DNA of 38,482 nt from a virus. Below the pieces are notes generated by a model. The model made no database searches. It saw nothing but the letters and a program-made list of their open reading frames with translations, and was not told the DNA's origin. The translations under genes and the position numbers were made by a program. Location: positions 1 through 38,482 of IMG/VR virus record IMGVR_UViG_3300045988_071605; one strand, 5' to 3'. This document shows, one piece after another, positions 14,606 through 38,442 of the stretch (the first letter of the stretch is position 1; the number at the start of each line of letters is the position of its first letter).

Positions 14606-15153
14606 ACTCTCAACCCCTGTCCGAATCGGGCTTTCATATAGGGCTTCAGAAAGCCCGTCAGAGACTTCGGAAAGCCCATAGAGGAATTATCCCCGTCCAT
14701 GTTGAAATACGTCACAGAATGCCGGGAAATCGTCTCTGACTGAACGCCTACCTTGTCGCCGTTGTCAAGCTGCCATTTGACCATGTTCGCAACGCCCAGC
14801 TTAACGTCCATCGGATAGACAACCTTCGTGATGACAACGCCGCTTTCGTCATACAGATCTTCTTTCACGGTAATGACGCCGTTGGAAGATGTTCTGACAT
14901 TGACAAGACCGGCGTTCAACTCGGATTCCGTAATCTGCAACGTGTCCCCGGCTTTGAAGGGATTGTTTACCGCAGTCACAAGCTGATGACCGGAAGATGT
15001 AGCCACGGCAACCGCCCGGAAAGCTCTTTTCTGGAAGTTGTTATTGGTATATGCCCGGATCAACAGTTCAAGCGCTGAAAGACGTGCTTCCAGCGCCTGA
15101 TCCGTTTCATCCGTTGTCACAAACTGCCGCAGTTCGGCAACGGTCATTATCAT
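14602..15153 (-). CDS. gp6-like head-tail connector protein
   Basis: N-terminus TVAELRQFVTTDETDQALEARLSALELLIRAYTNNNF is typical of Phage_connect_1. It lies directly after the capsid gene. Confidence 0.8.
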   Translation of the reverse strand: MIMTVAELRQFVTTDETDQALEARLSALELLIRAYTNNNFQKRAFRAVAVATSSGHQLVTAVNNPFKAGDTLQITESELNAGLVNVRTSSNGVITVKEDLYDESGVVITKVVYPMDVKLGVANMVKWQLDNGDKVGVQSETISRHSVTYFNMDGDNSSMGFPKSLTGFLKPYMKARFGQGLRV

Positions 15154-15164
15154 GTGTTTCTACC

Positions 15165-16157
15165 TCACGCCTTGAAACGCGCAAGCACAAGCTTTGCGTC
15201 GTTGGTCTTGGCGACGCCGTAGTAACGGGCGGCGGTGATGTCATGCTGCTGCTTCTTCGGGAACCACTCGTGATCCACCTGCGTGTCTTTCTTCAGGAAG
15301 ATCGTGATCGCCGGAAGCTCGGCTTCGGTGTACTCGGTTTCGGCGCTGTCCGGCTCCATCTTGATGATCGGGCAGAGGTAATACTTGCTTGCAGCAGCCA
15401 GTTCTTTGACCTTGTTGGACGTGGTCAGCGTGACGGACGGATCAACCTTCGCCTGATACTCGGCAATATTGTCCGCAGAAATCTGGACAGTTCCGTTGGA
15501 ATCGTCCACTTCGTAGGACACCAGACGCACCTTCTTGGACTTCTTGACCCAGCAACCGGCAATCTTGCCGATAGCGCCGTTGACAGCCACGCCAGCCGTG
15601 AACTTATCAGCGGAGAGGAAGGAAGAATCCTTCAGCAGCGCCGCTTCCTGCTTGGGATGAATGAACATCACCTTTTCAATGCCGTCCTCTTCGTCCTCAA
15701 ACTTTGTGACAGCATCGACAACGCCGTTATACGCGATGGTGGCAAGCGTAGTCGGGGCAACAACGACGCTGCCCTTGTAGGCGGCGTCAAGAACGTCGTT
15801 GTCCACCTTACCGGCAATCGCCTTGGAAAGCTGGGATTCAGCCTGACCGACCGGATCACCGAGACCGGAATTGATCGCTTCCTGCGTGATGCCCACGGCT
15901 TTCATTGCCTTCTTGATGCTGAACGTGGTGCTGGAAGCGGTCATCTGGCTAAGACCGACTTCGCCGCCCTCGGCGACATCTTCCGCGTCGCCAATATAGT
16001 TCCAGCTCGGAACGGTCTTGGTATCGCCGGGGACGCCCTGAAGCGTGGTGTCAACCTTCGCATAGGGCGTGATTTTCAGAAGCGCTTCGATCTTCGCGTT
16101 GATCATGTCGCCCATGACCTGCGGATTGATGATGTTTTCAAGTTTCGTGATAGCCAT
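15165..16157 (-). CDS. Major capsid protein (HK97 fold, scaffold-dependent type)
   Basis: 330 aa following the scaffold gene. N-terminus MAITKLENIINPQVMGDMINAKIE is typical of Firmicutes siphovirus capsid proteins. Confidence 0.9.
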   Translation of the reverse strand: MAITKLENIINPQVMGDMINAKIEALLKITPYAKVDTTLQGVPGDTKTVPSWNYIGDAEDVAEGGEVGLSQMTASSTTFSIKKAMKAVGITQEAINSGLGDPVGQAESQLSKAIAGKVDNDVLDAAYKGSVVVAPTTLATIAYNGVVDAVTKFEDEEDGIEKVMFIHPKQEAALLKDSSFLSADKFTAGVAVNGAIGKIAGCWVKKSKKVRLVSYEVDDSNGTVQISADNIAEYQAKVDPSVTLTTSNKVKELAAASKYYLCPIIKMEPDSAETEYTEAELPAITIFLKKDTQVDHEWFPKKQQHDITAARYYGVAKTNDAKLVLARFKA

Positions 16158-16179
16158 AGTGTTTTACCTTACCTTTCTG

Positions 16180-16833
16180 TTACGATCCCATAGCCGCATT
16201 GTAGGCTTCGGGATTCTCATTGAAGATTTTCATTCGGTCTGCGTAGGACATTTTGAGCAAAGATTCTTTCGTGACGGAATCGCCGCCCTGACCGTCCGGA
16301 AGTTTGTTTTCAACGACTTTCTTCTTTCCGGCACTTTCAAACTGATTCGGGAACTGCGTTTTCAGACCGACCAGCTTGTCATCCATGCCCTTGACTTTTC
16401 CGTTTTCGTCAAGCGTCAGCTCTTCCGGCTTGTACTTCTCACGCAGCTTGAACGCCAGATAGTCAGGATCGACCGCCTTTGCGTCACGAAGGGCAAGCTG
16501 GATCGCATTTTCAAGCTTCGTCTTTTCAAGCTCTGCCTGAAGCTGCTGCACCTGCGTTTCATAGCCGGTGATCTTGCCCTGCAATTCCTCATTGCCTTTC
16601 GTGCCTTTCTTCAGCTCGGCAATCAGGCCGTTGGCCGTGTCAAGCTCGGCGGCCTTGCCGTCAAGCTGCGCCTGAAGCGCGTCATATTTGCCCTTGCCGA
16701 CATACTCACCGCCGCCAAGATTGGCAAGCTTGATCTGCTTGTCCTTATTCGCTTCGCTGCCGTTGTAGGCGTTGACCGCCGTTTCAAACTGCTTGAAAAG
16801 CTCTTCGCCCAAAATCTCTTTCAGAAATTCCAT
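16180..16833 (-). CDS. Scaffolding protein (GP20-like)
   Basis: 217 aa, highly charged and coiled-coil. N-terminus MEFLKEILGEELFKQFETAV. Positioned upstream of the capsid gene. Confidence 0.85.
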   Translation of the reverse strand: MEFLKEILGEELFKQFETAVNAYNGSEANKDKQIKLANLGGGEYVGKGKYDALQAQLDGKAAELDTANGLIAELKKGTKGNEELQGKITGYETQVQQLQAELEKTKLENAIQLALRDAKAVDPDYLAFKLREKYKPEELTLDENGKVKGMDDKLVGLKTQFPNQFESAGKKKVVENKLPDGQGGDSVTKESLLKMSYADRMKIFNENPEAYNAAMGS

Positions 16834-16950
16834 TGTGTATACCTTCCTTTGTCGTTGTTTTTAATCGCGGTGTCACCGCAGACAAGCGCCTGTTTAAGCG
16901 TCCGGCGCAAGGACGATCTTGAACGGTTTAAACGTCTCGTTCAGGACTAT

Positions 16951-16990
16951 GAAAAAAGCAGCTATTCGGAATTTCCGAACAACTGCTTTA
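16951..16990 (-). terminator. Intrinsic terminator after the endolysin gene
   Basis: Interrupted hairpin AGCAG..TTCGGA-aat-TCCGAA..CTGCT, followed by TTTTTTC on the minus strand. Confidence 0.7.
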
Positions 16991-17004
16991 ATCTGTTTTT
17001 TCGG

Positions 17005-17910
17005 TCAGCCGATCAGGGCTTTCCATGTGTCGCTTCCGACTTCTCCGTCAGAAAGAATCTTTGCCGCCGTCTGAAAAGATTTGACCGCGCTTTCGGTTTT
17101 CTCGCCGAAGCTGCCGTCAACATCGACGGACATTCCGCGAAAGACCAAAAGCGTTTGCAGAGCCTTTACAGAAAGCCCCGTGTGCCCTCTTTTCAGCAGG
17201 GGAAGGGTAACGGTGCAGGTTTCCGCTGCGCCGCTTGTGGGCGCTTCTGCGGCTTCTCCGGCAGCACCGGGAATCTTCAGCACCTGCCCTGCGTGGATAA
17301 GCTCGGAAGCCAGTCCGTTCAGCGTTTTTATTTCTTTCCAGCGCGTCCCGTCGCCGAGCTGATTTGCCGCGATGCTCCAAAGAGAATCCCCGGCCTTGAC
17401 AGTGTAGGTCTTGCCCGTTCTGCCGGTTTCCTTGATCGCCGAAGAAGCGGTGTTCCCTGCGCCTGTATAGCGCAAAATGTTTGTCCACGGGAAATTTCGA
17501 TAACGGCGCTTCAGGAACTCGCCCCCGGTCTGATCTCCCGGTTTACCGCCTGTGATGCCGCCTTTTTCGTTGCCGGACGCTTCGACTTCATAGCCGTTGC
17601 CGCAATACATAGCGGTATGGTGTGTTACGTTCAAAAGCACATCACCGCGGACAAGGCCGCTGCCGGTGGAAAGGTTGATTTTGCTTGTTACATCTTCAAA
17701 GCCGCAGCGCTTGAAAACTGCAAGCATGTTGCCGGTATATGTTGCGCCGTTGCTCTTGACCGGCACACCGGCGTTTTCCCACGCCTGAATTACAGCGGCG
17801 GAACAGTCAAAATCTCCGTATTCTCCCCATCTGTAACGCTGGTCGTAACCGTGGGCGGGATCGTCCGCCCACGATTCCATTTGAGATATTGCCTTTTCAA
17901 TTACGCTCAT
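17005..17910 (-). CDS. Endolysin: N-terminal cysteine peptidoglycan hydrolase (NlpC/P60- or Amidase_5-like) + LysM + PG_binding_1
   Basis: Cys motif DFDCSAAV, His motif VTHHTAMY, GDQTGGE. LysM segment YTVKAGDSLWSIAANQLGDGTRWKEIKTLNGL...GQVLKIP. C-terminal LKRGHTGLSVKALQTLL...DGSFGEKTESAVKSFQ. Confidence 0.9.
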   Translation of the reverse strand: MSVIEKAISQMESWADDPAHGYDQRYRWGEYGDFDCSAAVIQAWENAGVPVKSNGATYTGNMLAVFKRCGFEDVTSKINLSTGSGLVRGDVLLNVTHHTAMYCGNGYEVEASGNEKGGITGGKPGDQTGGEFLKRRYRNFPWTNILRYTGAGNTASSAIKETGRTGKTYTVKAGDSLWSIAANQLGDGTRWKEIKTLNGLASELIHAGQVLKIPGAAGEAAEAPTSGAAETCTVTLPLLKRGHTGLSVKALQTLLVFRGMSVDVDGSFGEKTESAVKSFQTAAKILSDGEVGSDTWKALIG

Positions 17911-18134
17911 TCGGCGTCAGTCCCTTCGTCCTCTTCCGGACACTCTTCCGGGATACCGGCAAGGGAAGTCAGCAGCGACAGGACGCCAGCCAGCAGGGAC
18001 GCGCTGCCCACCATGAGCCAGTTTACCTCCGACATGACGGCAGTCGTGCCGATGGTAGCGACGGCGGTCTGCGCCACAGTTTTCAGCGCACGGATACCCG
18101 CCGCCTTGATCCAGTTCTTCCAACATCTTTTCAT
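17907..18134 (-). CDS. Holin (2 TM helices, acidic C-terminal tail)
   Basis: Start refined to ATG18134, 9 nt after AGGTGG. TM segments IRALKTVAQTAVATIGTTAV and WLMVGSASLLAGVLSLLTSLAGI; tail PEECPEEDEGTDAE. There is a 4-nt overlap with the endolysin start. Confidence 0.75.
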   Translation of the reverse strand: MKRCWKNWIKAAGIRALKTVAQTAVATIGTTAVMSEVNWLMVGSASLLAGVLSLLTSLAGIPEECPEEDEGTDAE

Positions 18135-18251
18135 TTGGTTTTTCCACCTTTCATAAAATATTAAAAGCAACCTGCCATCCCCTAATAATCCCCCGCGTGG
18201 AACGCAGGACTTCAGGAATGAGAAGCTGCTTTTTTACTTGATTGTGCGCAT

Positions 18252-18282
18252 GAAAAAAGGGCTTGCAATTCTGCAAACCCTT
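18252..18282 (-). terminator. Second intrinsic terminator in the spacer upstream of the holin gene
   Basis: Minus-strand AAGGGTTTGCA-gaat-TGCAAGCCCTT (one mismatch), followed by TTTTTT. Confidence 0.6.
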
Positions 18283-18367
18283 GATTTCGCTATGATTTTT
18301 TACTTGCCTGTAACTTGCAAACGCACGATTAACGCATCAAAACACACGCCGTGCGTTTTTTGGCATA

Positions 18368-18396
18368 GAAAAAGCACCGTGCGGATGCACGATGCT
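18368..18396 (-). terminator. Intrinsic terminator directly after the 84-aa gene
   Basis: Minus-strand AGCATCGTGC-atcc-GCACGGTGCT (10 bp, one mismatch) overlapping the TAA stop, followed by TTTTTC. Confidence 0.7.
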
Positions 18397-18650
18397 TAGT
18401 TATGAAACCTATATTTCGACGGAACAGCAATCTGTTTGCCTTTTTGCATTCTTTCAAAGTTGTCAGGAATAAAGAAGATTTCTGTTTTTCCGTCTGCCTT
18501 ATTCACAAAGACCGGCGAAACATCGGACACCTCGCCATCTTTCGACATTGTTCCAATGACAAACCCATTGCCAATGTCGGTTATAACATCAACATACGGT
18601 TCATTGCGAAGCTTCGTAGCAACCCCGCAAGCTCTTTCAACATCAATCAT
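18396..18650 (-). CDS. Small cytoplasmic protein, candidate immunity protein for the MuF-fused toxin domain
   Basis: 84 aa, with no TM helix or signal peptide. It lies 21 nt downstream of the toxin-bearing gene and is AT-rich like the toxin domain (about 35% GC in a 60-nt hand count). Terminators follow. Confidence 0.6.
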   Translation of the reverse strand: MIDVERACGVATKLRNEPYVDVITDIGNGFVIGTMSKDGEVSDVSPVFVNKADGKTEIFFIPDNFERMQKGKQIAVPSKYRFHN

Positions 18651-18671
18651 AATATATATAATCCTTTCAAC

Positions 18672-20273
18672 TTAATTTTGAATTATACACTGTTCAATCA
18701 AGTCTGTAAAGTCCTTATTATCAATTCGCAGCAGCCGTGTTGATGCCGGTTTTATCATGCCAGCGTTGAAATAATAGGAACAGTCCTTTTTGCTTGTCTG
18801 CGGATCAATAAACCGTGTAACTCCGTTGACCTGTTCGGCGATGAAAACATGACCGCCGCCGCCTTGCCACTGTACTCTAACGATTGCCCTTGCACCGTCT
18901 CCGTAACCAGACATCATTGATTCAATGCTCTTTTTAATTGTGGTTGATCTGCTTCCGATTGGCGTTTCAAGGCTTGCAATGCCGTCTTTATATACATTTG
19001 CCCAGCCTTTGGGATTCAACATATACGGCAGCGTGTCAGGGGCATTAAGAATGGCTTCTGAAGCCGCAACATCATAGCCCCTTCTCCGTGCTTCATACGC
19101 GGAAACACACCGCTGACAGTTTACTTGATATTGTCTGCCTGTCGAATAAAGCGGATTCGTCGTATTATAACAATCGTCAACAGTATGCGAACTTAAAACC
19201 TTTGCCGTGTCAAGTTTATCAATGCCTGTTTTCTTAATAGCAGAAGCTCCGGTTGCTGCGGTCGCTTGCGAAGCGACATTTCCTGAAGCGTTGTCGGAAT
19301 CCGTTGCAGCCTTCAGATACTTTTCCTTGTACTCTTCAAAGTTTTTCGTCTTGTCAAGCCCGAAGTATTCAGCGCGGTCTTTCAGCGTTTGCAGCTCTTC
19401 TTCACCGAGCGCCCAGCGTGCGCGTGTGTTGGACGTGCAGCGGCAGTTGACAACCTCGGCAGCGCCCCCGGAAGGATCGCCGGGGAACATCAGCCCGTTG
19501 GAAAACTTTTCGTCCAGCTCCCGAATCTCGCCGTCAACGCGCCTGTGGGAATCGCGTGTGCGCCCGTCAAGCGCAGCGTCCCATTGCTTCACAACGTCCG
19601 CGCCCTTGGCTTTTGCGGCATACTGCGCATCGCGGGAAGATGTCTGCTGTATTCTGTGGCCTTCCGTCCGAGCGATTGTTTTTGCTCTGGACAGCGGAGC
19701 GCCGGACACGTTGCCGATGTTTCGGGCAATGTCACGATAGGGGAGAGAAGAAGCAATGCCCCGGCTGATCTCATGCGTGATCGTCTTTTTGAGCTTGGCG
19801 ACATCCACGCCCAACGCATTGTAAAGCCCGTTGCTGACTTTGCTGTCTGTCAGAATCGCCTTGACCGCCTGTGCCTGATCTATCGGCGCGATGACCGGAA
19901 CGCCCTGCTTGCTTATATCGTACATTGTGCCGATATAGCCGTCTTCATAGCAGCCTTTCAGGTATTTGTCAATGGTGGCGTAGTTGTCGCCGTGGAGCTT
20001 GTCCAGAATGCCGCTGACCTGCCCCTGAAGGGCTTTCTGGTACTGCTGCTGATAAACCTTTGACCGCTTCTGCGATTGCAGCAGCGCCTTTGTGGCGTCA
20101 TCCAAGCCGTCCTGCGACAACGCTTCATCCAGCAGGTCAATGTCCGCCTGAAAGCCCTTGACTTTCTCGTTGATGTCCCGCAGCGCCCGTGCATACTGCG
20201 CTTCAAGCTCTTTGATCGCGGCTTCCTCGCTGTCAAGCAAGGATTTCTGCACTTCAATTTCCCACTTATTCAA
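18672..20273 (-). CDS. MuF / SPP1 gp7-like head morphogenesis protein fused to a C-terminal papain-fold toxin domain (Tox-PL / glutamine-deamidase-like)
   Basis: MuF motifs AKTIARTEGHRIQQ, DGRTRDSHRRVDGE, VNCRCT (aa ~195-280). Low-complexity linker aa ~325-350. C-terminal motifs NCQRCVSAYEARRRGYDV (Cys386), GGGGHVFIAEQVNGVTRFIDPQT (His475, Asp490). Confidence 0.85.
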   Translation of the reverse strand: MNKWEIEVQKSLLDSEEAAIKELEAQYARALRDINEKVKGFQADIDLLDEALSQDGLDDATKALLQSQKRSKVYQQQYQKALQGQVSGILDKLHGDNYATIDKYLKGCYEDGYIGTMYDISKQGVPVIAPIDQAQAVKAILTDSKVSNGLYNALGVDVAKLKKTITHEISRGIASSLPYRDIARNIGNVSGAPLSRAKTIARTEGHRIQQTSSRDAQYAAKAKGADVVKQWDAALDGRTRDSHRRVDGEIRELDEKFSNGLMFPGDPSGGAAEVVNCRCTSNTRARWALGEEELQTLKDRAEYFGLDKTKNFEEYKEKYLKAATDSDNASGNVASQATAATGASAIKKTGIDKLDTAKVLSSHTVDDCYNTTNPLYSTGRQYQVNCQRCVSAYEARRRGYDVAASEAILNAPDTLPYMLNPKGWANVYKDGIASLETPIGSRSTTIKKSIESMMSGYGDGARAIVRVQWQGGGGHVFIAEQVNGVTRFIDPQTSKKDCSYYFNAGMIKPASTRLLRIDNKDFTDLIEQCIIQN

Positions 20274-21735
20274 CTACATCACCATTGCCTTCGGGCTGAA
20301 TACCCCCCAGCGCGGTCTTTGCTGCCGCTGTCGGATCATCTTCCGGCGTGGGCAGCTTGTCCTTTATATCGTCGTAATCCAATGTCAAGGCTTCGCAGAT
20401 AAGCTGCATGGTCAATTCCTGCCCAAGCATGGTGGCGGCGTTCTGAATCGTCGTGATCTTCGTCTGCTGCTCCTGCGCTTTGGAAAGGTCAATCGCGGCG
20501 TTCTCCTGCGCATTGGTGATGATCTCGCGCTCGAAGTCGAAATAGACGTCCTTCTGTTCGTAGTCCGTCCCCTGTGTGTCGTTGATCTCTTTCAGCACCA
20601 GCTTCAGCAGCTTTCGCATGAACTGAAGAAGAAACGGCTGCAAGCCGTCGCACTTCAGATCAAGGTTTGCATACGCGGACTTGATCGCAATGGACGTTGT
20701 GGCGCTGGTGTCCTTCAGCGCTTCCGTGTTCACGCCCTGCCCAAAGCGGAAGATGTTCTTTTCGTCCACTTCCATCTTCGTTTTCCGGGCTTCCACGGGG
20801 ATGTCAACGGTCTTGATGTCCACGCCGCCGTCAGCGCCGTCAAGACCGATATGCTTCTTAGCTTTGATGTTCAACATCAATTCGTCAAGGTTGTCGCCCT
20901 GAAAACCGCGAACGACATACAGGGCTTCGTTTGTGTCCTGAATGTTGTTGGAAAGACCTGCGTTCATCAGATCGTAATCGTCAATCAGGTCTTTGATGGG
21001 ATTCAGACCGGAAATCTGCTTCTTGCCGTTATCCAGCCGGAAGAAAGGGATCATTCCGTAATCTTCAAAGTAGGTGTTTTCGTCGCCGTCCTTTTTGAAG
21101 ATGATGTGCGGACGCGGATTGAGATCAACGGAATCGTCTTTCACAATCGCGCCTTCGCCCTCTTGGACATAAAAAAAGGTCTGGGCTTTGTCCCAAACCT
21201 GAATGCGCTTGATCTTCTTGTTGTCCTTGCCTATGCGGTCGATGTACCAATAGATGATATAGGCGCATTTATCTTCGGTTTCTCTCTCCCGGACTTCCAC
21301 AACGCCGATGCTGTCCGCCGCCTGAAACGCCGTCCTGTCGCTTTCGTCCTTATAGGCATACATATACGCGCAGCCTGTGGAAACCGCGCCAACAAGCAGC
21401 TCTGACAGCTCTGCAACGAAGTTTTCATTCTCGTTGAAGTAGGCGTCAAGCTCCGTCTGAAGCTCCGGAATGTCGGATTTCACGAAGCCGCCGTGACCAG
21501 AAAGCATATACTGTGCTTGCTGATCCACCAGCAGCCGGAAGAACGGATGACTAATCTTGATGTTGGATTTCGTCTTATCTTCCTGTGGATTGCCGTCTGC
21601 GTCAATGAAGATGATTCTATAATCCTTTATGTCGTGGTTTCCCTCGTAGTAGCGCAAGCCCGTTCGCGCAAGCTGCTTCTTCGTGCTGGACGCATCCCGC
21701 TCTATAAAACTTTTGATTTCCTCAATGGAAAGCAT
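20266..21735 (-). CDS. Portal protein (SPP1 gp6 family)
   Basis: 489 aa. N-terminus ...LRYYEGNHDIKDYRI... and position between TerL and MuF fit the family. Confidence 0.92.
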   Translation of the reverse strand: MLSIEEIKSFIERDASSTKKQLARTGLRYYEGNHDIKDYRIIFIDADGNPQEDKTKSNIKISHPFFRLLVDQQAQYMLSGHGGFVKSDIPELQTELDAYFNENENFVAELSELLVGAVSTGCAYMYAYKDESDRTAFQAADSIGVVEVRERETEDKCAYIIYWYIDRIGKDNKKIKRIQVWDKAQTFFYVQEGEGAIVKDDSVDLNPRPHIIFKKDGDENTYFEDYGMIPFFRLDNGKKQISGLNPIKDLIDDYDLMNAGLSNNIQDTNEALYVVRGFQGDNLDELMLNIKAKKHIGLDGADGGVDIKTVDIPVEARKTKMEVDEKNIFRFGQGVNTEALKDTSATTSIAIKSAYANLDLKCDGLQPFLLQFMRKLLKLVLKEINDTQGTDYEQKDVYFDFEREIITNAQENAAIDLSKAQEQQTKITTIQNAATMLGQELTMQLICEALTLDYDDIKDKLPTPEDDPTAAAKTALGGIQPEGNGDVVE

Positions 21736-21754
21736 GGCTTTTCACCTTCCTTTT

Positions 21755-22048
21755 TTACGAAAGCCCTAATTTCAAAAGGACATAGCCAACAATGGCGGCA
21801 ACGGACAGAAGTATGACCTTCTCAACAACCATTTCCCAGCGCTTGCCGTCCCTGCCCATGAGCTTTTTTACATCGGTTTTGATCTCGGCGACATCCGCCT
21901 TGATGTGCGTTTGCTCGGACGCCATGACCGCAACAGTTTTGATCGTTTCGGTCATATATTCCTGCTTTTTAGACAGCTCATCAATTCTATGCGTGTTCGA
22001 TTTGCACCGTTCTTCCACGGCGGTCAGCCTTCTTCCGTATTCATCCAT
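21755..22048 (-). CDS. XhlA-like small membrane protein (N-terminal coiled coil + C-terminal TM anchor)
   Basis: 97 aa. RLTAVEERCKSNTHRIDELSKKQE coiled coil; C-terminal VILLSVAAIVGYVLLKLGL. The architecture resembles PBSX XhlA. Confidence 0.55.
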   Translation of the reverse strand: MDEYGRRLTAVEERCKSNTHRIDELSKKQEYMTETIKTVAVMASEQTHIKADVAEIKTDVKKLMGRDGKRWEMVVEKVILLSVAAIVGYVLLKLGLS

Positions 22049-22080
22049 GTTGTGGCACTCACTTTCACAATGTTAAAAAT

Positions 22081-23307
22081 TTAATATAGCCAGCGTTTGA
22101 CCTTGCGCCAGCCTTCCACGCCGTAACGCAGCGCTGCCATTGCGTCATCCTGAAACGGGACAGGTTCGTCAAGGTATTCGCCGGACTTATCGTCTTTTTT
22201 CCACTTCCATTGCTGCAATTCCTTGATGGTATTCACGCAATGCGGATGGACATAAATTTTACGCTGCTTCAGCCAGTCTATCTGTGCCTTGACGCTTCCG
22301 GCGCTGCCGCCCTTGTCCACGCCCTTTGCGCGGAAACCGGCTTTCTGCCACATCTTAACGCGGTCAGGCTCGGCGCTGTCGCACCACATCTGTTTATTGC
22401 GGGGAATATCTGAAGCAAGCTGGATGATCTCTGCTGTGTCCTTCTCAAAGACATAGATTTCGGACAGTATGGAAACATCGTCGTCCTTGATGCCCAGCAG
22501 CAGAAGGGCGTTTGCGTGGTTGAAGCCGAAGTCCTGACCAATGGCGATGTCGTCATAATCATTCAGATTCAGACTGACTTCTTTGATCTCCCAATTGTGG
22601 AGGATCAAGCCGCCGATCTCGCCCCATTCGCCAAGACCATAGATTCTGTAGCCTTCGGGATCGACAAGACGGCGGCGCTCCATTCTGGCGCGGTACGCTT
22701 CATCAATGAAGCGGTTCATCTGATATGTGCTGTGGTGTGTCAGTACGTTCGGATCGGGAATGTCAAAAAAGACCTTCTTGATCCAGTGATTCTTATTCAC
22801 CGGATTGAATGTCATCCGAATTTGATAAAACTGTCCGGGCGGCAGCTCGCCGCGCAGACGGTCATCTATGATCTCAACGTCTGCCTGTGTCAGCTCGGTT
22901 GCTTCCTCGCACCATACGTCCGTTAGCTTGCCGCGCTGGAATGTGATAGACTTCAGCTTTTCGCGCTGCTTATCATCGTTCATCCCCCTGAATATGATCT
23001 GATTGCCGTTGGCTTTACAGGTCAGCTTCAGAGGGGACATATTGATTTGCCAATACCGCTCTGCCTGATCGCCAAACATCCGGTATATAGCGCCTGTAAG
23101 CTCTGCAAAGGTGCTGTCACGGTTCGTTATGTCGGACTTGCGGATGCAAACAAGGTTTCGCCCTTTGTCCTGCATCAGCCGCAGGATGTAATTCTGCGCC
23201 GTGTCAACAGATTTTCCCGATCCAGCCGAGCCTTTCATAACGATATAACGCTTGTCGCTGCGGTCAACCTCTTTGAAGCAGGGATTTGCTTGTACTTTGA
23301 TATTCAC
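22081..23307 (-). CDS. terL: Terminase large subunit (PBSX family)
   Basis: Walker A GSAGSGKS near the N-terminus. 408 aa with a PBSX-type TerL sequence pattern. Confidence 0.95.
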   Translation of the reverse strand: MNIKVQANPCFKEVDRSDKRYIVMKGSAGSGKSVDTAQNYILRLMQDKGRNLVCIRKSDITNRDSTFAELTGAIYRMFGDQAERYWQINMSPLKLTCKANGNQIIFRGMNDDKQREKLKSITFQRGKLTDVWCEEATELTQADVEIIDDRLRGELPPGQFYQIRMTFNPVNKNHWIKKVFFDIPDPNVLTHHSTYQMNRFIDEAYRARMERRRLVDPEGYRIYGLGEWGEIGGLILHNWEIKEVSLNLNDYDDIAIGQDFGFNHANALLLLGIKDDDVSILSEIYVFEKDTAEIIQLASDIPRNKQMWCDSAEPDRVKMWQKAGFRAKGVDKGGSAGSVKAQIDWLKQRKIYVHPHCVNTIKELQQWKWKKDDKSGEYLDEPVPFQDDAMAALRYGVEGWRKVKRWLY

Positions 23308-23633
23308 AGCGCATCAGCCGCCTTGAAAGCTGCCATCAGCTTTGGGAACTGTGTGGCAATCCAGTCAACCATTGTTTCTTCATGTCCCCATTCATCATGG
23401 TGGAAGTTTTGATGCAAGCCGGATTCAAAAAGAAAAGCATGAATGATTTCATGCCGCAGACAGGTCTTTTTATATACTTCAAAGATTTCAAGCTCGCAGG
23501 AATCATCCTTGTCCTTGACAACTATCTTCTTCGATGTCTTATCACAATAACCATCGACTTGTTTCAAATAGCTGTCCTTCTGCGCCGTTGTAATTATGAC
23601 CGTGTACTTCGTTCCAAGAACGTCAATTTTCAT
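23304..23633 (-). CDS. Small HExxH zincin-like protein
   Basis: 109 aa with CLRHEIIHAFLFESG (HExxH followed by a downstream E). There is a 4-nt overlap with the terL start. Confidence 0.65.
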   Translation of the reverse strand: MKIDVLGTKYTVIITTAQKDSYLKQVDGYCDKTSKKIVVKDKDDSCELEIFEVYKKTCLRHEIIHAFLFESGLHQNFHHDEWGHEETMVDWIATQFPKLMAAFKAADAL

Positions 23634-23865
23634 CCGCTATAGCTCCTTTTTCAAGCCGTCCGCATTGCCTTTCAGCGCACCTGTGCGTTTCGAGCAAGCC
23701 GACCGTAAGCCACGCCTGATAATACCGGCAGTATGCGGCAGGATAGAAAGAATAATTGCCGTCAATCAGAATGTGCTTTTCTTTCTGCCTTTCCGGGCGC
23801 AGATTCCGGCGCTCATATCGTCTTTCCCTTTGCGCCTTTCTGTTCCCTTTGCTGCGGTTGCTCAT
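23623..23865 (-). CDS. Hypothetical basic protein with a Cys/His-containing C-terminal half
   Basis: ATGA start/stop overlap with terS. The N-terminus is Arg/Lys-rich; the C-terminus reads YCRYYQAWLTVGLLETHRCAERQC. No family was recognised. Confidence 0.5.
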   Translation of the reverse strand: MSNRSKGNRKAQRERRYERRNLRPERQKEKHILIDGNYSFYPAAYCRYYQAWLTVGLLETHRCAERQCGRLEKGAIADEN

Positions 23866-24311
23866 TCGTTATCACCGTAATCCACCGTGATGTTCAAATC
23901 CATGTCAACGGTCTGCTCCACTTTATCAACAAAGATTTGGTGCGCCTTGCCAAGCAGTTCGGCGGCCTTCAGGCGTTCTTTTTCGTCAGGCGCTTTCTGA
24001 ATAAGCCGCGCTTCGCTCATGTAATCGCCGACATTTTCAACAACGACAACTTCAGACTGTGATTGTCCGCGAAGAACGGATGTTAGATACCGCATCACTT
24101 CATCACTATCAGCGATCAGTTCAGCTTCCTTTTCTTTCATGCGTTCGTTTATATAGTTTTTCACGGCAAGCTTTGATAAGTTTTGCGCTCCTATCACACG
24201 CGCCGTCTTTTTGCTGTACCCGGCTCTGATTGCGGCTTGCGTCGCGTTAAGGTCAATCAGATATTCATCACAAAAGCGCTGCTGTTTTGCCGTAAGCTTT
24301 GCCACAATCAT
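23862..24311 (-). CDS. terS: Terminase small subunit (Terminase_2 / P27-type)
   Basis: LTAKQQRFCDEYLIDLNATQAAIRAGYSKKTARVIGAQNL motif. Start refined to ATG24311, after AAAGG. Confidence 0.9.
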   Translation of the reverse strand: MIVAKLTAKQQRFCDEYLIDLNATQAAIRAGYSKKTARVIGAQNLSKLAVKNYINERMKEKEAELIADSDEVMRYLTSVLRGQSQSEVVVVENVGDYMSEARLIQKAPDEKERLKAAELLGKAHQIFVDKVEQTVDMDLNITVDYGDNE

Positions 24312-24323
24312 CACCGCCTTTCG

Positions 24324-25259
24324 TTAAAACTTTGATAAATCAGCCTTTTCAATATCCTGCTGCCGGATTCCTTCAATCTTTTTTGGATCGCCCTTGTAAA
24401 ACACAAGAACATTCTGATGCACCTTCACCGGCTTTCTTCTCGCTTCAAACTGTCTACCGGCTCGCATAACCGCTGTTGCATACTGCTCCAAAAGAATGGA
24501 ATCGGCATACAGATGCAGCCCGTTTTCCCTGAATAAAGCTTTTGTAAGCCCCACAAAATCCCGGTAAGCGCCTTTGGAATCTCGAATTTCACCAACAACA
24601 AAAGCCGCAAAACTGTTTTCTTTCAGCTTGCGGCAGGATATATCAATGATTTCCTTGTATGCTTCCGAAAAGTCGGAATAGCTCATGTTGGACAAATCCA
24701 GCGGATGATCGCTGTATTTTTCAAGATTGTGATAGGGCGGACAGGTGAAAACAAAATCCGCTGTTTCGTCTGCTATGTATTTATCTGCGTTCCGGCTGTC
24801 ATCACACCACCAGACCGGACACACGCCCAAGGTGTCAGCGTTCATCTGGTTTGCGTCAACCTGCTTTTCGGAAAGGTCAATGCCGATGTAATGCCGTCCG
24901 AGCATTTCAGCCACAACGCCGCGAACCGAGCCACCGGCGAAGGGATCAAACACTATGCCGCCTTTGGGACTGTACCAGTTATAAAGAACTTCACAAAGTA
25001 CCGGATCAAAGATTGATGTCCCTGTCAGATTTTCGCTTCTCATTCGTGCGAGTTGTGCAAACCCTTTGCCAATCAGCGCGTCATTTCTCCCGGCTGCGCT
25101 GTCAAGCCCTATGCTTTTCCATTCGTTTTTGCGTTTCTGCCAGTAGCCCTGTTTGGTATCAAATACGGAAACAGGTGGGGCATAGGAAACGTTCTTGCAA
25201 TATACCCATGTAACCAACCCTTTCAAGGCATAATAAAAGCCAGCCGGGGAAAGGAACAA
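24324..25259 (-). CDS. SAM-dependent DNA amino-methyltransferase (N6-A or N4-C), orphan
   Basis: Motif I VFDPFAGGS is followed ~65 aa later by motif IV FTCPPY. No nuclease partner is present. The start codon is unresolved: the TTG at 25259 lies in a hairpin loop, and in-frame TTGs occur at 25226 and 25217. Confidence 0.8.
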   Translation of the reverse strand: MFLSPAGFYYALKGLVTWVYCKNVSYAPPVSVFDTKQGYWQKRKNEWKSIGLDSAAGRNDALIGKGFAQLARMRSENLTGTSIFDPVLCEVLYNWYSPKGGIVFDPFAGGSVRGVVAEMLGRHYIGIDLSEKQVDANQMNADTLGVCPVWWCDDSRNADKYIADETADFVFTCPPYHNLEKYSDHPLDLSNMSYSDFSEAYKEIIDISCRKLKENSFAAFVVGEIRDSKGAYRDFVGLTKALFRENGLHLYADSILLEQYATAVMRAGRQFEARRKPVKVHQNVLVFYKGDPKKIEGIRQQDIEKADLSKF

Positions 25260-36025: not shown

Positions 36026-36162
36026 GAGCAGATCGGTTGCAGCCCCTCACCTGCTATGGCTACATAATAGCGTGTATTTTCATAAGAAGTAAACATTCAA
36101 ACCGGAATGATCTATGCCGCAGACGATTAAATCAATGTATGGTTAGGATAACGGGGGATTTT

Positions 36163-36756
36163 ATGGAAAACAGGACTATTATTCAGCAAATCCAGCCACA
36201 ATGCGACAACCTTTACAAGAACATCAAGAAAGCCGTGAACGCGCAGCACCGGACGCACCGCGAGATTGTAGAGCAGACCGGTATACCGCGCTCGACCATT
36301 GCGAAATTCCTGTCCGGTGCGCTGTCAAACCCCTGCGTGTTTTATATCGCCGCCCTGTGCAAGTATCTCAATCTTTCTATGGATGGACTGTTTGACGCAG
36401 AGCCGCAGAGTGAGCGGGAAGCGGGGGAGAACGCCGACCTTCAGGCCAAGCTAAACAGCGCCGAACAGCAAATAAAGCATCTGAACGAAAAGTGCGGGAT
36501 GCTTCAAGCCGGAATCAGGGAGCGAAAGCCCGTTATTTATGGGCTGGCTGGCCTGTGCATATTCCTGTCTGTTGCCCTGTGCGGATATATCGCGCTGGAC
36601 ATCAGTGATAGGGAGCACGGCCTTTTTGTTGCAAACAGATTCCCCGTCATTGGGTGTGCGCTGTGCATTCTCATTGGTGCCTCCGTCTTTGGGTTCCTAT
36701 GCTATATTGCAAAAAACAGAAGAAAAAAGGATAAAGAGAACGACAACTTAATATAA
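36163..36756 (+). CDS. Membrane-anchored XRE-like HTH protein (HTH + coiled coil + 2 TM helices)
   Basis: Start refined to ATG36163. HTH segment HRTHREIVEQTGIPRSTIAKFLSGALSNPCVFYIAALCKYLNLSMDGLF. Coiled coil LQAKLNSAEQQIKHLNEKCGMLQ. TM segments VIYGLAGLCIFLSVALCGYIAL and VIGCALCILIGASVFGFLCYIA. Confidence 0.8.
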   Translation: MENRTIIQQIQPQCDNLYKNIKKAVNAQHRTHREIVEQTGIPRSTIAKFLSGALSNPCVFYIAALCKYLNLSMDGLFDAEPQSEREAGENADLQAKLNSAEQQIKHLNEKCGMLQAGIRERKPVIYGLAGLCIFLSVALCGYIALDISDREHGLFVANRFPVIGCALCILIGASVFGFLCYIAKNRRKKDKENDNLI

Positions 36757-36789
36757 TCAAACAATAACCCACGAAAGAAGCTGATCGTT

Positions 36790-38442
36790 TTGTATTATCA
36801 ACCGAAGATAGATTTTAAGCCGGAAGAAGTCATTGATTATTTAAGAAAATCCCGCTCGGATGATCCGCTGCTGACTGTGGAAGAAGTCCTTTCCAAGCAT
36901 GAATCCATGTTGGACGAATGGGCAGAAAAGCACCTCGGCGCGGTCGTTCCGGAAGAGAATAAATACAGGGAAGTGGTATCCGGCGAGACCATAGCCGAAC
37001 GCCCGGAGATCAACCGCGTTTTGAGATTGATAGAATCGCCGAAATATAAGGCCGTTGCCGTGGTAGAGCCGCAGCGTTTAACCCGTGGCGATCTTGAAGA
37101 TATAGGGCGGCTGATGAAGCTGCTGAAGCACACAAACACGCTTGTCATCACGCCGCAGCGCATTTATGACCTGCGGGATGAATACGACTGGGACGCCTTT
37201 GAACGCGAGCTGAAGCGCGGAAATGACTATCTGGAATACACAAAGAAAATTTTGAACCGTGGGCGGCTGCTGTCCGTCAGTCAGGGAAACTATGTCGGCA
37301 ATACGCCGCCGTATGGCTATGATAAAACGTTTGTCACGGAGGGGAAGAGGAAGTGTCCTATCCTTGTTCCGAATAAAGCAGAGGCGGACGTTGTACGCAT
37401 GATGTTTGACCTGTATGTCAACAAAGACATGGGCTGCACAAACATCTGCAAGAAGTTTGATGAAATGGGAATCAAGCCGCCGAAAGGGGATTATTGGTCT
37501 CCGGCAGCAATGACAAAGATGCTCCAAAATATTCACTATATCGGGAAAGTCAAGTGGAATCACCGAAAGACGCTGACCATCGTTGAAGAAGGGGAGTTCA
37601 AGAAAACGCGCCCGGTTGCGCAAGTAGGGGAGTTCCTAATATACGACGGAAAGCACGAAGCCATTATTCCCGAAGAGCTGTTCAACGCTGCGCAAGCCAA
37701 GAAGGGAAAGAACACGCGCCAGAAGCCGAACACGAAAGTCAGAAATCCGTTTGCCGGTCTGATCTGGTGCAAGTGCGGACGCGCTATGTCCCTTAGGACA
37801 TACAAAAACCGCGATGCAGCGCCGCGCCTTTTGTGCGACGGACAAACCCATTGCAAAACCGGCTCTTGCCTGTATTCCGAAATGGAAGAGCGCGTAATAT
37901 CGATCCTGACGGATTGCATCAAGGATTTTGAAATCCGCTTGAAGAATGACGAAGGCGATTCTGCCAAGCTCCACGCACGGCTTATCAAGAATCTGGAAGC
38001 CAAGCAGAAAGAGCTTGACGAAAAAGAGCTTGCCCAATGGGAAGCGCAAGCTGACCCCGATCCGGCAAAGCGGATGCCGCCGCATATCTTCCAGCAACTC
38101 AACGAAAAGCTGTTGAAGGAAAAAGAGGAAGTCAGACAGGCGCTTTGCAAGGCTTACGAATCCATGCCCGAACCTGTAAATTACGAAGAGAAGATCACGC
38201 AGTTTTCCGAAGCGCTCAACGCCTTAAAAGACCCGAACATTGACGCGGCAACAAAAAACAGGCTCTTGAAAGCCTGTATCGAACGCATTGAGTATCACCG
38301 GGACACGCCGCAGCGAATCAAAAGCCAGCAGGTAAGATATTACGACCCGGAACAGAAGCGCACACGCTACAAATCGCCGCTAAGCACGGGCGGCAACTGG
38401 ACAAGCCCGGAGATCGTGCTTGATGTTAAACTGAAGGCGTGA
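36790..38442 (+). CDS. Large serine recombinase (integrase)
   Basis: N-terminal resolvase-type catalytic motif YLRKSRSD, a recombinase domain, zinc ribbon CKCGRAMS...CDGQTHCKTGSC and a C-terminal coiled coil. TTG start. The stop lies inside the terminal repeat. Confidence 0.93.
   Translation: MYYQPKIDFKPEEVIDYLRKSRSDDPLLTVEEVLSKHESMLDEWAEKHLGAVVPEENKYREVVSGETIAERPEINRVLRLIESPKYKAVAVVEPQRLTRGDLEDIGRLMKLLKHTNTLVITPQRIYDLRDEYDWDAFERELKRGNDYLEYTKKILNRGRLLSVSQGNYVGNTPPYGYDKTFVTEGKRKCPILVPNKAEADVVRMMFDLYVNKDMGCTNICKKFDEMGIKPPKGDYWSPAAMTKMLQNIHYIGKVKWNHRKTLTIVEEGEFKKTRPVAQVGEFLIYDGKHEAIIPEELFNAAQAKKGKNTRQKPNTKVRNPFAGLIWCKCGRAMSLRTYKNRDAAPRLLCDGQTHCKTGSCLYSEMEERVISILTDCIKDFEIRLKNDEGDSAKLHARLIKNLEAKQKELDEKELAQWEAQADPDPAKRMPPHIFQQLNEKLLKEKEEVRQALCKAYESMPEPVNYEEKITQFSEALNALKDPNIDAATKNRLLKACIERIEYHRDTPQRIKSQQVRYYDPEQKRTRYKSPLSTGGNWTSPEIVLDVKLKA

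Follow-up and report, generated by a model that had tools for sequence, protein, structure and literature searches.

Toxin domains fused to MuF-type head proteins were described as a family in 2017 (PMC5576092), and the combination of a MuF domain with a Tox-PL1 (PL1) domain had already been reported by Zhang 2012 from prophage neighbourhoods containing terminase, portal and capsid genes (PMC3482391). Both studies describe the hypothesis that MuF proteins are packaged into the capsid. Expression of two MuF toxins with other C-terminal domains, MuF-Apk2 and the MuF-ADP-ribosyltransferase (ART) protein Bxa, was found to be toxic, and small proteins encoded beside them neutralise both (PMC12226406, PMC11699363), and a Bacteroidales MuF-'glutamine deaminase' with an adjacent small open reading frame (ORF) and a predicted complex of the two was added in 2024 (PMC11699363). 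The locus analysed here lies on an IMG/VR virus record (IMGVR_UViG_3300045988_071605, positions 1 to 38,482; this whole stretch of 38,482 nucleotides (nt) is referred to as the window) and consists of a MuF-Tox-PL1 fusion gene and a gene for a protein of 84 amino acids (aa) behind it. It most likely represents a polymorphic toxin of the MuF family, carried by a temperate siphophage, together with its cognate immunity gene. The first-pass annotation had assigned the gene to a described class of MuF-toxin fusions, and the exact MuF plus Tox-PL1 architecture is indeed known since 2012 (PMC3482391); the locus reveals no new kind of system.

A comparison with the MuF polymorphic toxins characterised so far (PMC5576092; Apk2, PMC12226406; Bxa, PMC11699363) shows the same MuF N-terminus, the same position in a temperate phage, next to the portal and terminase genes, and a variable C-terminal enzyme on a conserved core which is followed by a small ORF (<150 aa). 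The traits of the class that can be read from sequence are found together in the window, namely a MuF domain, a location in the head module, variable C-termini among relatives, a toxin domain shared with other polymorphic toxin families, and the small downstream ORF. The differences concern the enzymatic domain, which is a (p)ppApp synthetase in Apk2 and an ART in Bxa but Tox-PL1 here, and the host, apparently a gut Clostridia-type bacterium instead of Streptococcus or Bacteroides. The Bacteroidales MuF-'glutamine deaminase' (PMC11699363) is likened to the locus by its arrangement with an adjacent small ORF. SPP1 gp7, the portal-bound MuF-type minor head protein, shares the MuF core and the gene order terminase-portal-MuF-scaffold-capsid, but lacks a C-terminal toxin domain (PMC5576092), and the window differs further by a lysis cassette inserted between MuF and scaffold.

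The fusion protein's C-terminal domain belongs to Pfam family PF15644 (Gln_amidase, 'Papain fold toxin 1'), which matches aa 385-493 with E=1e-11 and 46.4 bits in the whole protein and with 47.9 bits in the isolated domain, compared to a gathering score of 24.1. With aa 351-533 as query, 324 proteins were retrieved from a database, every one of which contains PF15644, and the same holds for all members of an independent set of 91 related full-length ORFs from viral and genomic contigs. Seven residues are invariant in 115 aligned sequences taken from the 324 homologues (N373, N385, C386, R398, G399, H475, F477) and four in the 91 ORFs (P374, N385, C386, H475), while at least 90% of the aligned sequences keep D490, P491 and Q492. 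The conserved N385-C386, H475 and D490-x-Q492 correspond to the NC...H...DxQ signature by which Tox-PL1 was defined (Zhang 2012, PMC3482391), and the domain of the window also shares the papain-like fold, the extreme C-terminal position and the fusion to MuF described there. The resemblance to the Tox-PL papain-fold family had been proposed in the first-pass annotation from the motifs NCQRC (from aa 385), GGGGHVF (from aa 471) and FIDPQT (from aa 488), and it is borne out by the profile match above threshold and the conserved signature. The positions assigned there to the codons of Cys386 (19118-19116) and His475 (18851-18849) are correct to the nucleotide, and the codon of Asp490 is 18806-18804.

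An AlphaFold2 model of the domain, calculated from the homologue alignment, reaches a predicted local distance difference test score (pLDDT) of 96.9 and a predicted template-modelling score (pTM) of 0.93. As judged from this model, which was read for topology, the predicted domain has the papain topology that the motifs had suggested, with Cys386 at the N-terminus of helix 36-47, His475 in strand 124-132 and Asp490 at the end of the next strand, 135-140 (model numbering), so that His and Asp stand on adjacent strands. Among the predicted viral structures in BFVD, the fold matches phage proteins at template-modelling (TM) scores of 0.7-0.85, with names such as 'Papain fold toxin 1', 'minor capsid protein' and 'VIP2-like toxin'. 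The best Foldseek matches in the Protein Data Bank (PDB) are weak ones to papain-fold bacterial effectors, namely YopQ, AvrPphB, OspI, RavD, BpJOS and Tse1. OspI, a Shigella type III effector which deamidates a glutamine of Ubc13 (PDB 3B21 / 4IP3) and is discussed beside PF15644 in the same cluster (PMC10318531), is likewise a papain-fold Cys-His-Asp enzyme, but differs by its eukaryotic target, an identity of 13-14%, a TM score of ~0.45-0.5, a Foldseek E of 0.02-0.04 and the lack of any sequence-level match. The likeness to OspI does not decide between deamidation and cleavage as the reaction of PL1.

The PL1 domain is found on several kinds of N-terminal parts. Among the 91 ORFs it follows three MuF-type families (29 with PF04233, 14 with PF06152 and 8 with PF25310), and in one protein (P0026) it is attached to a non-MuF N-terminus. 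PF15644 is also listed among the toxins of type II, III, VI and VII secretion systems (T2SS, T3SS, T6SS, T7SS; PMC3482391). One relative encodes a MuF protein of 765 aa in which ADPrib_exo_Tox and Gln_amidase domains are arranged in series (L013:1011-3308), and only one small gene, of the 84-aa family, follows it.

The N-terminal part of the fusion protein contains the MuF/SPP1 gp7 core recognised at first pass, with all quoted motifs in place (AKTIARTEGHRIQQ from aa 197, DGRTRDSHRRVDGE from aa 236 and VNCRCT from aa 275). Phage_Mu_F (PF04233) matches aa 164-280 with E=4e-19 and 69.7 bits against a cut-off of 29.6, and the protein also matches head-morphogenesis families of PHROG, while the score for TIGR01641 ('phageSPP1_gp7'), 38.3 bits, stays slightly below the cut-off of 39.65. 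The core is followed by a junction motif, AEYFGLDKTKNFEEYKEKYLKAA, which ends in ...FEEYKEKYLKAA (aa ~311-322); the exchangeable cassette begins after it with the previously described Ser/Ala/Thr linker, which lies at aa 323-350. Note that the start of the gene is ambiguous: translation from TTG 20273 yields 533 aa and overlaps the portal stop codon, whereas GTG 20252 would yield 526 aa, the length annotated for relative L001.

The exchange of the C-terminal part becomes directly visible when the locus is compared with its relatives. A megablast search with region 15000-24000 against deposited phage genomes gave one distant record, with 7% covered, so that no annotated close relative is available for comparison. 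When viral contigs were scanned with aa 1-300, 80 loci were obtained whose MuF cores are 50-98% identical to that of the window. Their C-termini fall into 15 unrelated clusters, and PL1 occurs only in the two nearest loci. Cores 92-94% identical to that of the window carry an ADP-ribosyltransferase (ADPrib_exo_Tox in Pfam), a domain with a weak RadC/Prok-JAB match below the Pfam cut-offs, a C-terminus with an HExxH motif but without Pfam match, or others, and more distant cores carry Ntox50, DUF6883 and further domains, yet all of the core relatives share the junction ...AEYFGLDKTKNFEEYKxKYLxAA. On the DNA level, homology to six relatives (L181, L183, L188, L190, L193, L195) stops at 19302-19317 and resumes in five of them exactly at 18397, among the final bases of the 84-aa gene, and in the sixth (L181) at 18172; no DNA homology to any of the six is found for 18398-19305. 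The unit exchanged is therefore 18398-19305, comprising the toxin domain together with the whole 84-aa gene. The C-terminal cassette exchange surmised at first pass is thus directly apparent from near-identical cores with unrelated C-termini.

The breakpoints coincide with a discontinuity in base composition. The cassette has a GC content of 43.6%, compared to 53% on both flanks, and ranks in the lowest 5% of same-size segments, while the GC content at third codon positions (GC3) falls from 0.64-0.82 in aa 1-300 to 0.36-0.48 in aa 301-533. The drop in GC reported at first pass is real (44.8% for 18672-19211 versus 57% for the MuF core), but the 27-38% then assigned to the toxin part is too low, single 60-nt lines ranging from 27 to 55%. 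The variable part is lower in GC than the core in all 76 of 76 relatives (mean 41.6% vs 51.4%), and the low GC content is a property of the variable slot and not of PL1.

The gene expected at first pass to be the partner of the toxin lies in the same cassette, starting 21 nt past the toxin stop codon, and its family follows the PL1 domains. In the closest cases (L001, L009, L010, L013, L014) a family member is located ~20 nt after the MuF-PL1 gene, and 68 of 97 PL1 toxins (non-redundant at 90% identity) have one directly downstream. An iterated partner profile run over all ORFs of at least 40 aa in 178 loci identified 142 ORFs, nearly all of which begin -60 to +120 nt from the stop codon of a PL1 gene, and the adjacency holds down to toxins only 34% identical to that of the window. 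From this linkage, the 84-aa protein is probably the antidote of the PL1 toxin. The identities of toxins and partners were also compared in 5671 pairs, but partner identity stays flat at ~36-38% for toxins 30-60% identical and rises only for close pairs; this co-evolution test was uninformative and is not used as evidence.

The partner family was extended from 7 clusters in a word-indexed search to 44 clusters (90% identity) with a profile, and an exhaustive profile search gave 99 representatives at 50% identity, nearly all of them 75-100 aa long. At least two long, repetitive proteins which scored on the profile (P0177, P0191) are likely repeat false positives and were discarded. The 84-aa protein itself has no match in Pfam, PHROG, NCBIfam or PADLOC. 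The Tox-PL1 proteins surveyed previously are accompanied by the immunity proteins Imm35 and SUKH (PMC3482391), whereas a Pfam search with the 84-aa protein and 42 relatives yielded neither of them at E <= 1, the matches being limited to six unrelated families with one member each (E 0.015-0.23). An AlphaFold2 model of the 84-aa protein (pLDDT 95.8) shows two helices and a small sheet, for which Foldseek found nothing in PDB (best E 0.46, TM < 0.35), and the family profile gave chance hits only among PDB sequences. Some loci contain the partner in several copies, either as tandem fusions of three (P0203) or two (P0195) domains or as three (L144) or two (L102) separate genes. One 583-aa ORF with VG15 and Gln_amidase domains (L077:4090-5841) also matches the 84-aa family profile (E=3e-17) and appears to be an in-frame fusion of toxin and partner, with the partner part assumed to be C-terminal; it may be a true fusion or an assembly error.

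Members of the family also occur without a toxin. Two of them, 56% (P0126) and 40% (P0161) identical to the 84-aa protein, occupy the last gene position in another integrated phage-like element, where they directly follow a helix-turn-helix (HTH) repressor and a tyrosine integrase beside rpsI-rplM; for P0161, the index of the collection lists 48 blocks. No PL1 domain is encoded in the 12-20 kb around these copies at the rpsI loci. An assignment of these orphan copies to satellites resembling phage-inducible chromosomal islands (PICI) was set aside, as the element in L260-L264 carries a short MuF gene of its own and is thus more likely a prophage. A further toxin-less partner (P0127) belongs to a series of small genes that follows a MuF gene with a non-PL1 C-terminus. 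Polymorphic toxin loci are known for immunity genes that are displaced or stand alone (PMC3482391, PMC11699363). It may tentatively be proposed that the 84-aa protein founds a family of inhibitors of injected PL1 effectors, and that the toxin-less copies constitute a prophage-borne defence which protects the lysogen from MuF-PL1 proteins of other phages or blocks infection by these phages, although we regard this extension as doubtful. The partner family, its exact co-transfer with the toxin and the copies in lysogeny modules appear to be unrecorded in the libraries and literature searched.

The partner gene may also have its own transcription signals. A promoter-like site is located within the last toxin codons, ~30 nt upstream of the 84-aa gene, and the identical motif is present at the same position in L001, L099, L013 and L009, the last three of which show a whole-region DNA identity of 73-76% to the window. 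Such sites precede 35 of 91 partner genes family-wide, compared to 10.6% of control segments, but the latter are richer in GC and the enrichment is therefore only suggestive. The predicted site suggests that the 84-aa gene could be transcribed alone, for example in a lysogen. On the other side of the gene, a terminator-like hairpin begins at the first base of the conserved backbone (18397). Together with a second one, it is found amid the late gene block, in a spacer that is conserved whatever cassette the relatives carry.

From the domains, catalytic residues, cassette boundaries and toxin-partner linkage observed here, we infer packaging and ejection of the fusion protein, toxicity, inhibition by the 84-aa protein, and an enzymatic chemistry with a target in the recipient, which may be envisaged as follows. 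The fusion protein would be produced along with portal and terminase during the late lytic phase, and its MuF part would carry it into the procapsid at the portal, as for SPP1 gp7. In the producing cell, the 84-aa protein would bind and block the PL1 domain, and a promoter of its own may in addition allow its synthesis in lysogens. When the phage next infects a cell, the MuF-PL1 protein would exit the capsid with the DNA, and PL1 would modify a protein in the recipient cytoplasm, either by cleavage or by deamidation of Gln or Asn side chains, while cells making the matching immunity protein would be protected.

Several observations weigh against this reading. Ejection of a MuF toxin into a recipient is not demonstrated in PMC5576092, PMC12226406 or PMC11699363, and the experimental support comes from the other MuF toxins Apk2 and Bxa, neither of which is of the PL1 type. 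The literature searched contains no published activity for any PF15644 member, and the 'glutamine deamidase' in the Pfam name reflects a remote similarity to OspI-type enzymes (PMC10318531). The PDB fold matches of the toxin domain have E values of 0.01-0.05 and TM scores of 0.45-0.5, and its sequence as well as the 115-sequence profile gave chance hits only against PDB, without a match to any solved structure. The PL1 fold also matches actinophage proteins labelled by their depositors 'capsid maturation protease and MuF-like fusion protein'. Finally, in 29 of the 97 PL1 clusters no member of the 84-aa family can be recognised downstream, and many of these clusters represent stand-alone proteins (~185 aa) outside phage head modules. 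Such stand-alone PL1 proteins are located in chromosomal, non-phage contexts (L110, L113, L118, L119, L123, L124 and others), with MatE transporters, a cytidylate-kinase-like gene, CheW or a stand-alone ART as neighbours.

The strongest competing explanation assumes that PL1 is not a competition toxin but an injected effector serving the phage, which would, for example, cleave or deamidate a protein involved in host defence or regulation and thereby aid infection or bias the choice between lytic and lysogenic growth. The 84-aa protein would then silence PL1 in the producer, and the toxin-less prophage copies would act as a superinfection defence disarming the incoming effector. This explanation shares all of the anatomical evidence with that of a polymorphic toxin, it accommodates the position of the toxin-less copies behind repressor and integrase in a lysogeny-expressed module of unrelated prophages at rpsI, and such a role has been proposed for low-toxicity peptidase and ART domains (Jamet 2017, PMC5576092); the present evidence does not separate a toxin from a pro-phage effector. 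However, PL1 is common to polymorphic toxins delivered by secretion systems (PMC3482391), which argues for a general toxicity, and the use of quite different enzymatic domains by close relatives ill fits one specific target required for infection. We consider it unlikely.

Less likely still is a role of PL1 as a morphogenetic or processing protease, acting in capsid maturation or in the autoproteolytic release of the MuF C-terminus, with the 84-aa protein as its regulator. A processing role was suggested by Zhang 2012 (PMC3482391) for Tox-PL1 near MuF and for internal PL1 copies, and was favoured there for the MuF-fused domain, whereas the cassette polymorphism reported here favours an effector role. 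The labels of related entries point in the same direction as the earlier proposal, since BFVD matches are annotated as 'capsid maturation protease' and 'capsid maturation protease and MuF-like fusion protein', and PHROG 595, which matches the whole protein, as 'head maturation protease'; in the MuF-ART-PL1 protein of L013, PL1 could release the ART domain. A capsid maturation protease should be a conserved and indispensable head part in close relatives, but sibling phages with homologous scaffold and capsid genes carry other C-terminal domains instead of PL1, which is thus dispensable for head assembly in this lineage. Moreover, the phage has a separate scaffold protein of the SPP1 type, and the occurrence of the partner without toxin in lysogeny modules and in tandem fusions is what immunity genes typically show.

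In phage T7, an internal head protein that is ejected bears a wall-degrading domain, and an NlpC/P60-like cell-wall amidase leaving the capsid and aiding DNA entry through peptidoglycan would also agree with weak fold matches of PL1 to the T6SS amidase Tse1 and Ssp-type amidases (E 0.2-0.5, TM 0.35-0.44), but this reading is highly improbable and was rejected, as Pfam places the domain in PF15644 and not in NlpC/P60, the partner has no hydrophobic N-terminal signal sequence and thus acts in the cytoplasm, and the phage already possesses a separate NlpC/P60-type endolysin.

The surroundings of the MuF-Tox-PL1 locus are those of a temperate phage (Table 1). On the minus strand, the genes are ordered terS, terL, portal and MuF, then scaffold and capsid, and the serine recombinase and HTH regulator at the right end indicate that the window represents a nearly whole temperate prophage. 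The head module also contains holin and endolysin genes (17005-18170), which separate the cassette from the scaffold gene. The first-pass annotation had called them a relocated lysis cassette; they indeed adjoin the MuF cassette, but this is not peculiar to the phage, as lysis genes occupy the MuF-scaffold position in most relatives, with other enzyme types (L001, L009, L013, L014 and L179-L195 were compared). The slot contains an r1t holin with GH25/CW_7 in L001, Phage_holin_6_1 with GH25/PG_binding_1 in L009 and Phage_lysozyme2 in L013, while L014 has no lysis genes at this position; in a 95%-identical relative (L179), the endolysin alone is replaced (window 16996-17906). A 97-aa ORF between large terminase and portal (21755-22048, minus strand), kept at the same place in L001, matches PHROG 937 'hemolysin' (E=2e-13) and, more weakly, holin/anti-holin families, which would be an unusual position for a lysis-type membrane protein. 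An N6/N4 DNA methylase gene (24324-25259, minus strand) is located just upstream of the small terminase gene.

Table 1. Features of the MuF-Tox-PL1 locus and of the loci compared with it. Positions refer to the window unless a locus is named.
Feature	Position	Strand	Basis or remark
MuF-Tox-PL1 fusion gene	18672..20273	-	533 aa from TTG 20273; ORF list, PF04233 + PF15644
Conserved backbone part of fusion gene (MuF core aa 1-300 + junction)	19306..20273	-	85-95% DNA identity to relatives with other C-termini
Junction motif	aa 301-322	-	common to 15 C-terminal types
Exchangeable cassette, 908 bp (linker, PL1 domain, short spacer, 84-aa gene)	18398..19305	-	DNA breakpoints at 19306 and 18397
Low-complexity Ser/Ala/Thr linker, aa 323-350	19224..19305	-	translation
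Tox-PL1 / Gln_amidase domain, aa 351-533	18672..19223	-	Pfam, homologues, AlphaFold2, BFVD fold matches
PF15644 match, aa 385-493	18795-19121	-	Pfam
Predicted catalytic Cys386 codon (in N385-C386)	19116..19118	-	invariance in alignments
Predicted catalytic His475 codon	18849..18851	-	invariance in alignments
Asp490 codon (in D490-P491-Q492)	18804..18806	-	at least 90% conservation
84-aa candidate immunity protein (predicted PL1 inhibitor)	18396..18650	-	ORF; linkage to PL1 genes
Sigma-70-like promoter, TTTACA-17 nt-TATAAT (11/12 consensus)	18682..18710	-	consensus scan, predicted
Intrinsic-terminator-like hairpin	18372..18397	-	scan; overlaps stop codon of 84-aa gene (18396-18398), runs 3'
Second terminator-like hairpin	18257..18282	-	scan; conserved spacer before holin gene
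Holin, r1t-type	17907-18170	-	Pfam
Endolysin, ELLD/NlpC-P60 + LysM + PG_binding_1	17005-17910	-	Pfam
Scaffold gene	16180-16833	-	downstream of lysis genes
Major capsid gene	15165-16157	-	downstream of lysis genes
Portal gene	20266-21735	-	upstream neighbour of MuF
Large terminase	22081-23307	-	upstream of portal gene
Small terminase	23862-24314	-	upstream of portal gene
Large serine recombinase	36790-38442	+	with HTH regulator, both within 36037-38442
Toxin-less partner loci	L259:8265-10258; L260-L264:6183-8267		end of integrated element at rpsI-rplM

MuF toxins are common in gut prophages, and the locus described here offers a clean test case for their purpose and their delivery into cells, because it combines a bounded cassette of 908 bp, confident models of toxin and partner and a defined catalytic Cys with relatives differing only in the cassette. 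The toxin-less partner copies provide a practical route for testing MuF head proteins as injected effectors. Their presence in the lysogeny modules of other prophages points to selection acting on the recipients of the toxin, and if they indeed serve as a defence against injected PL1, they would provide natural, if indirect, evidence for a delivery of MuF toxins into recipient cells and for selection on the toxins there.

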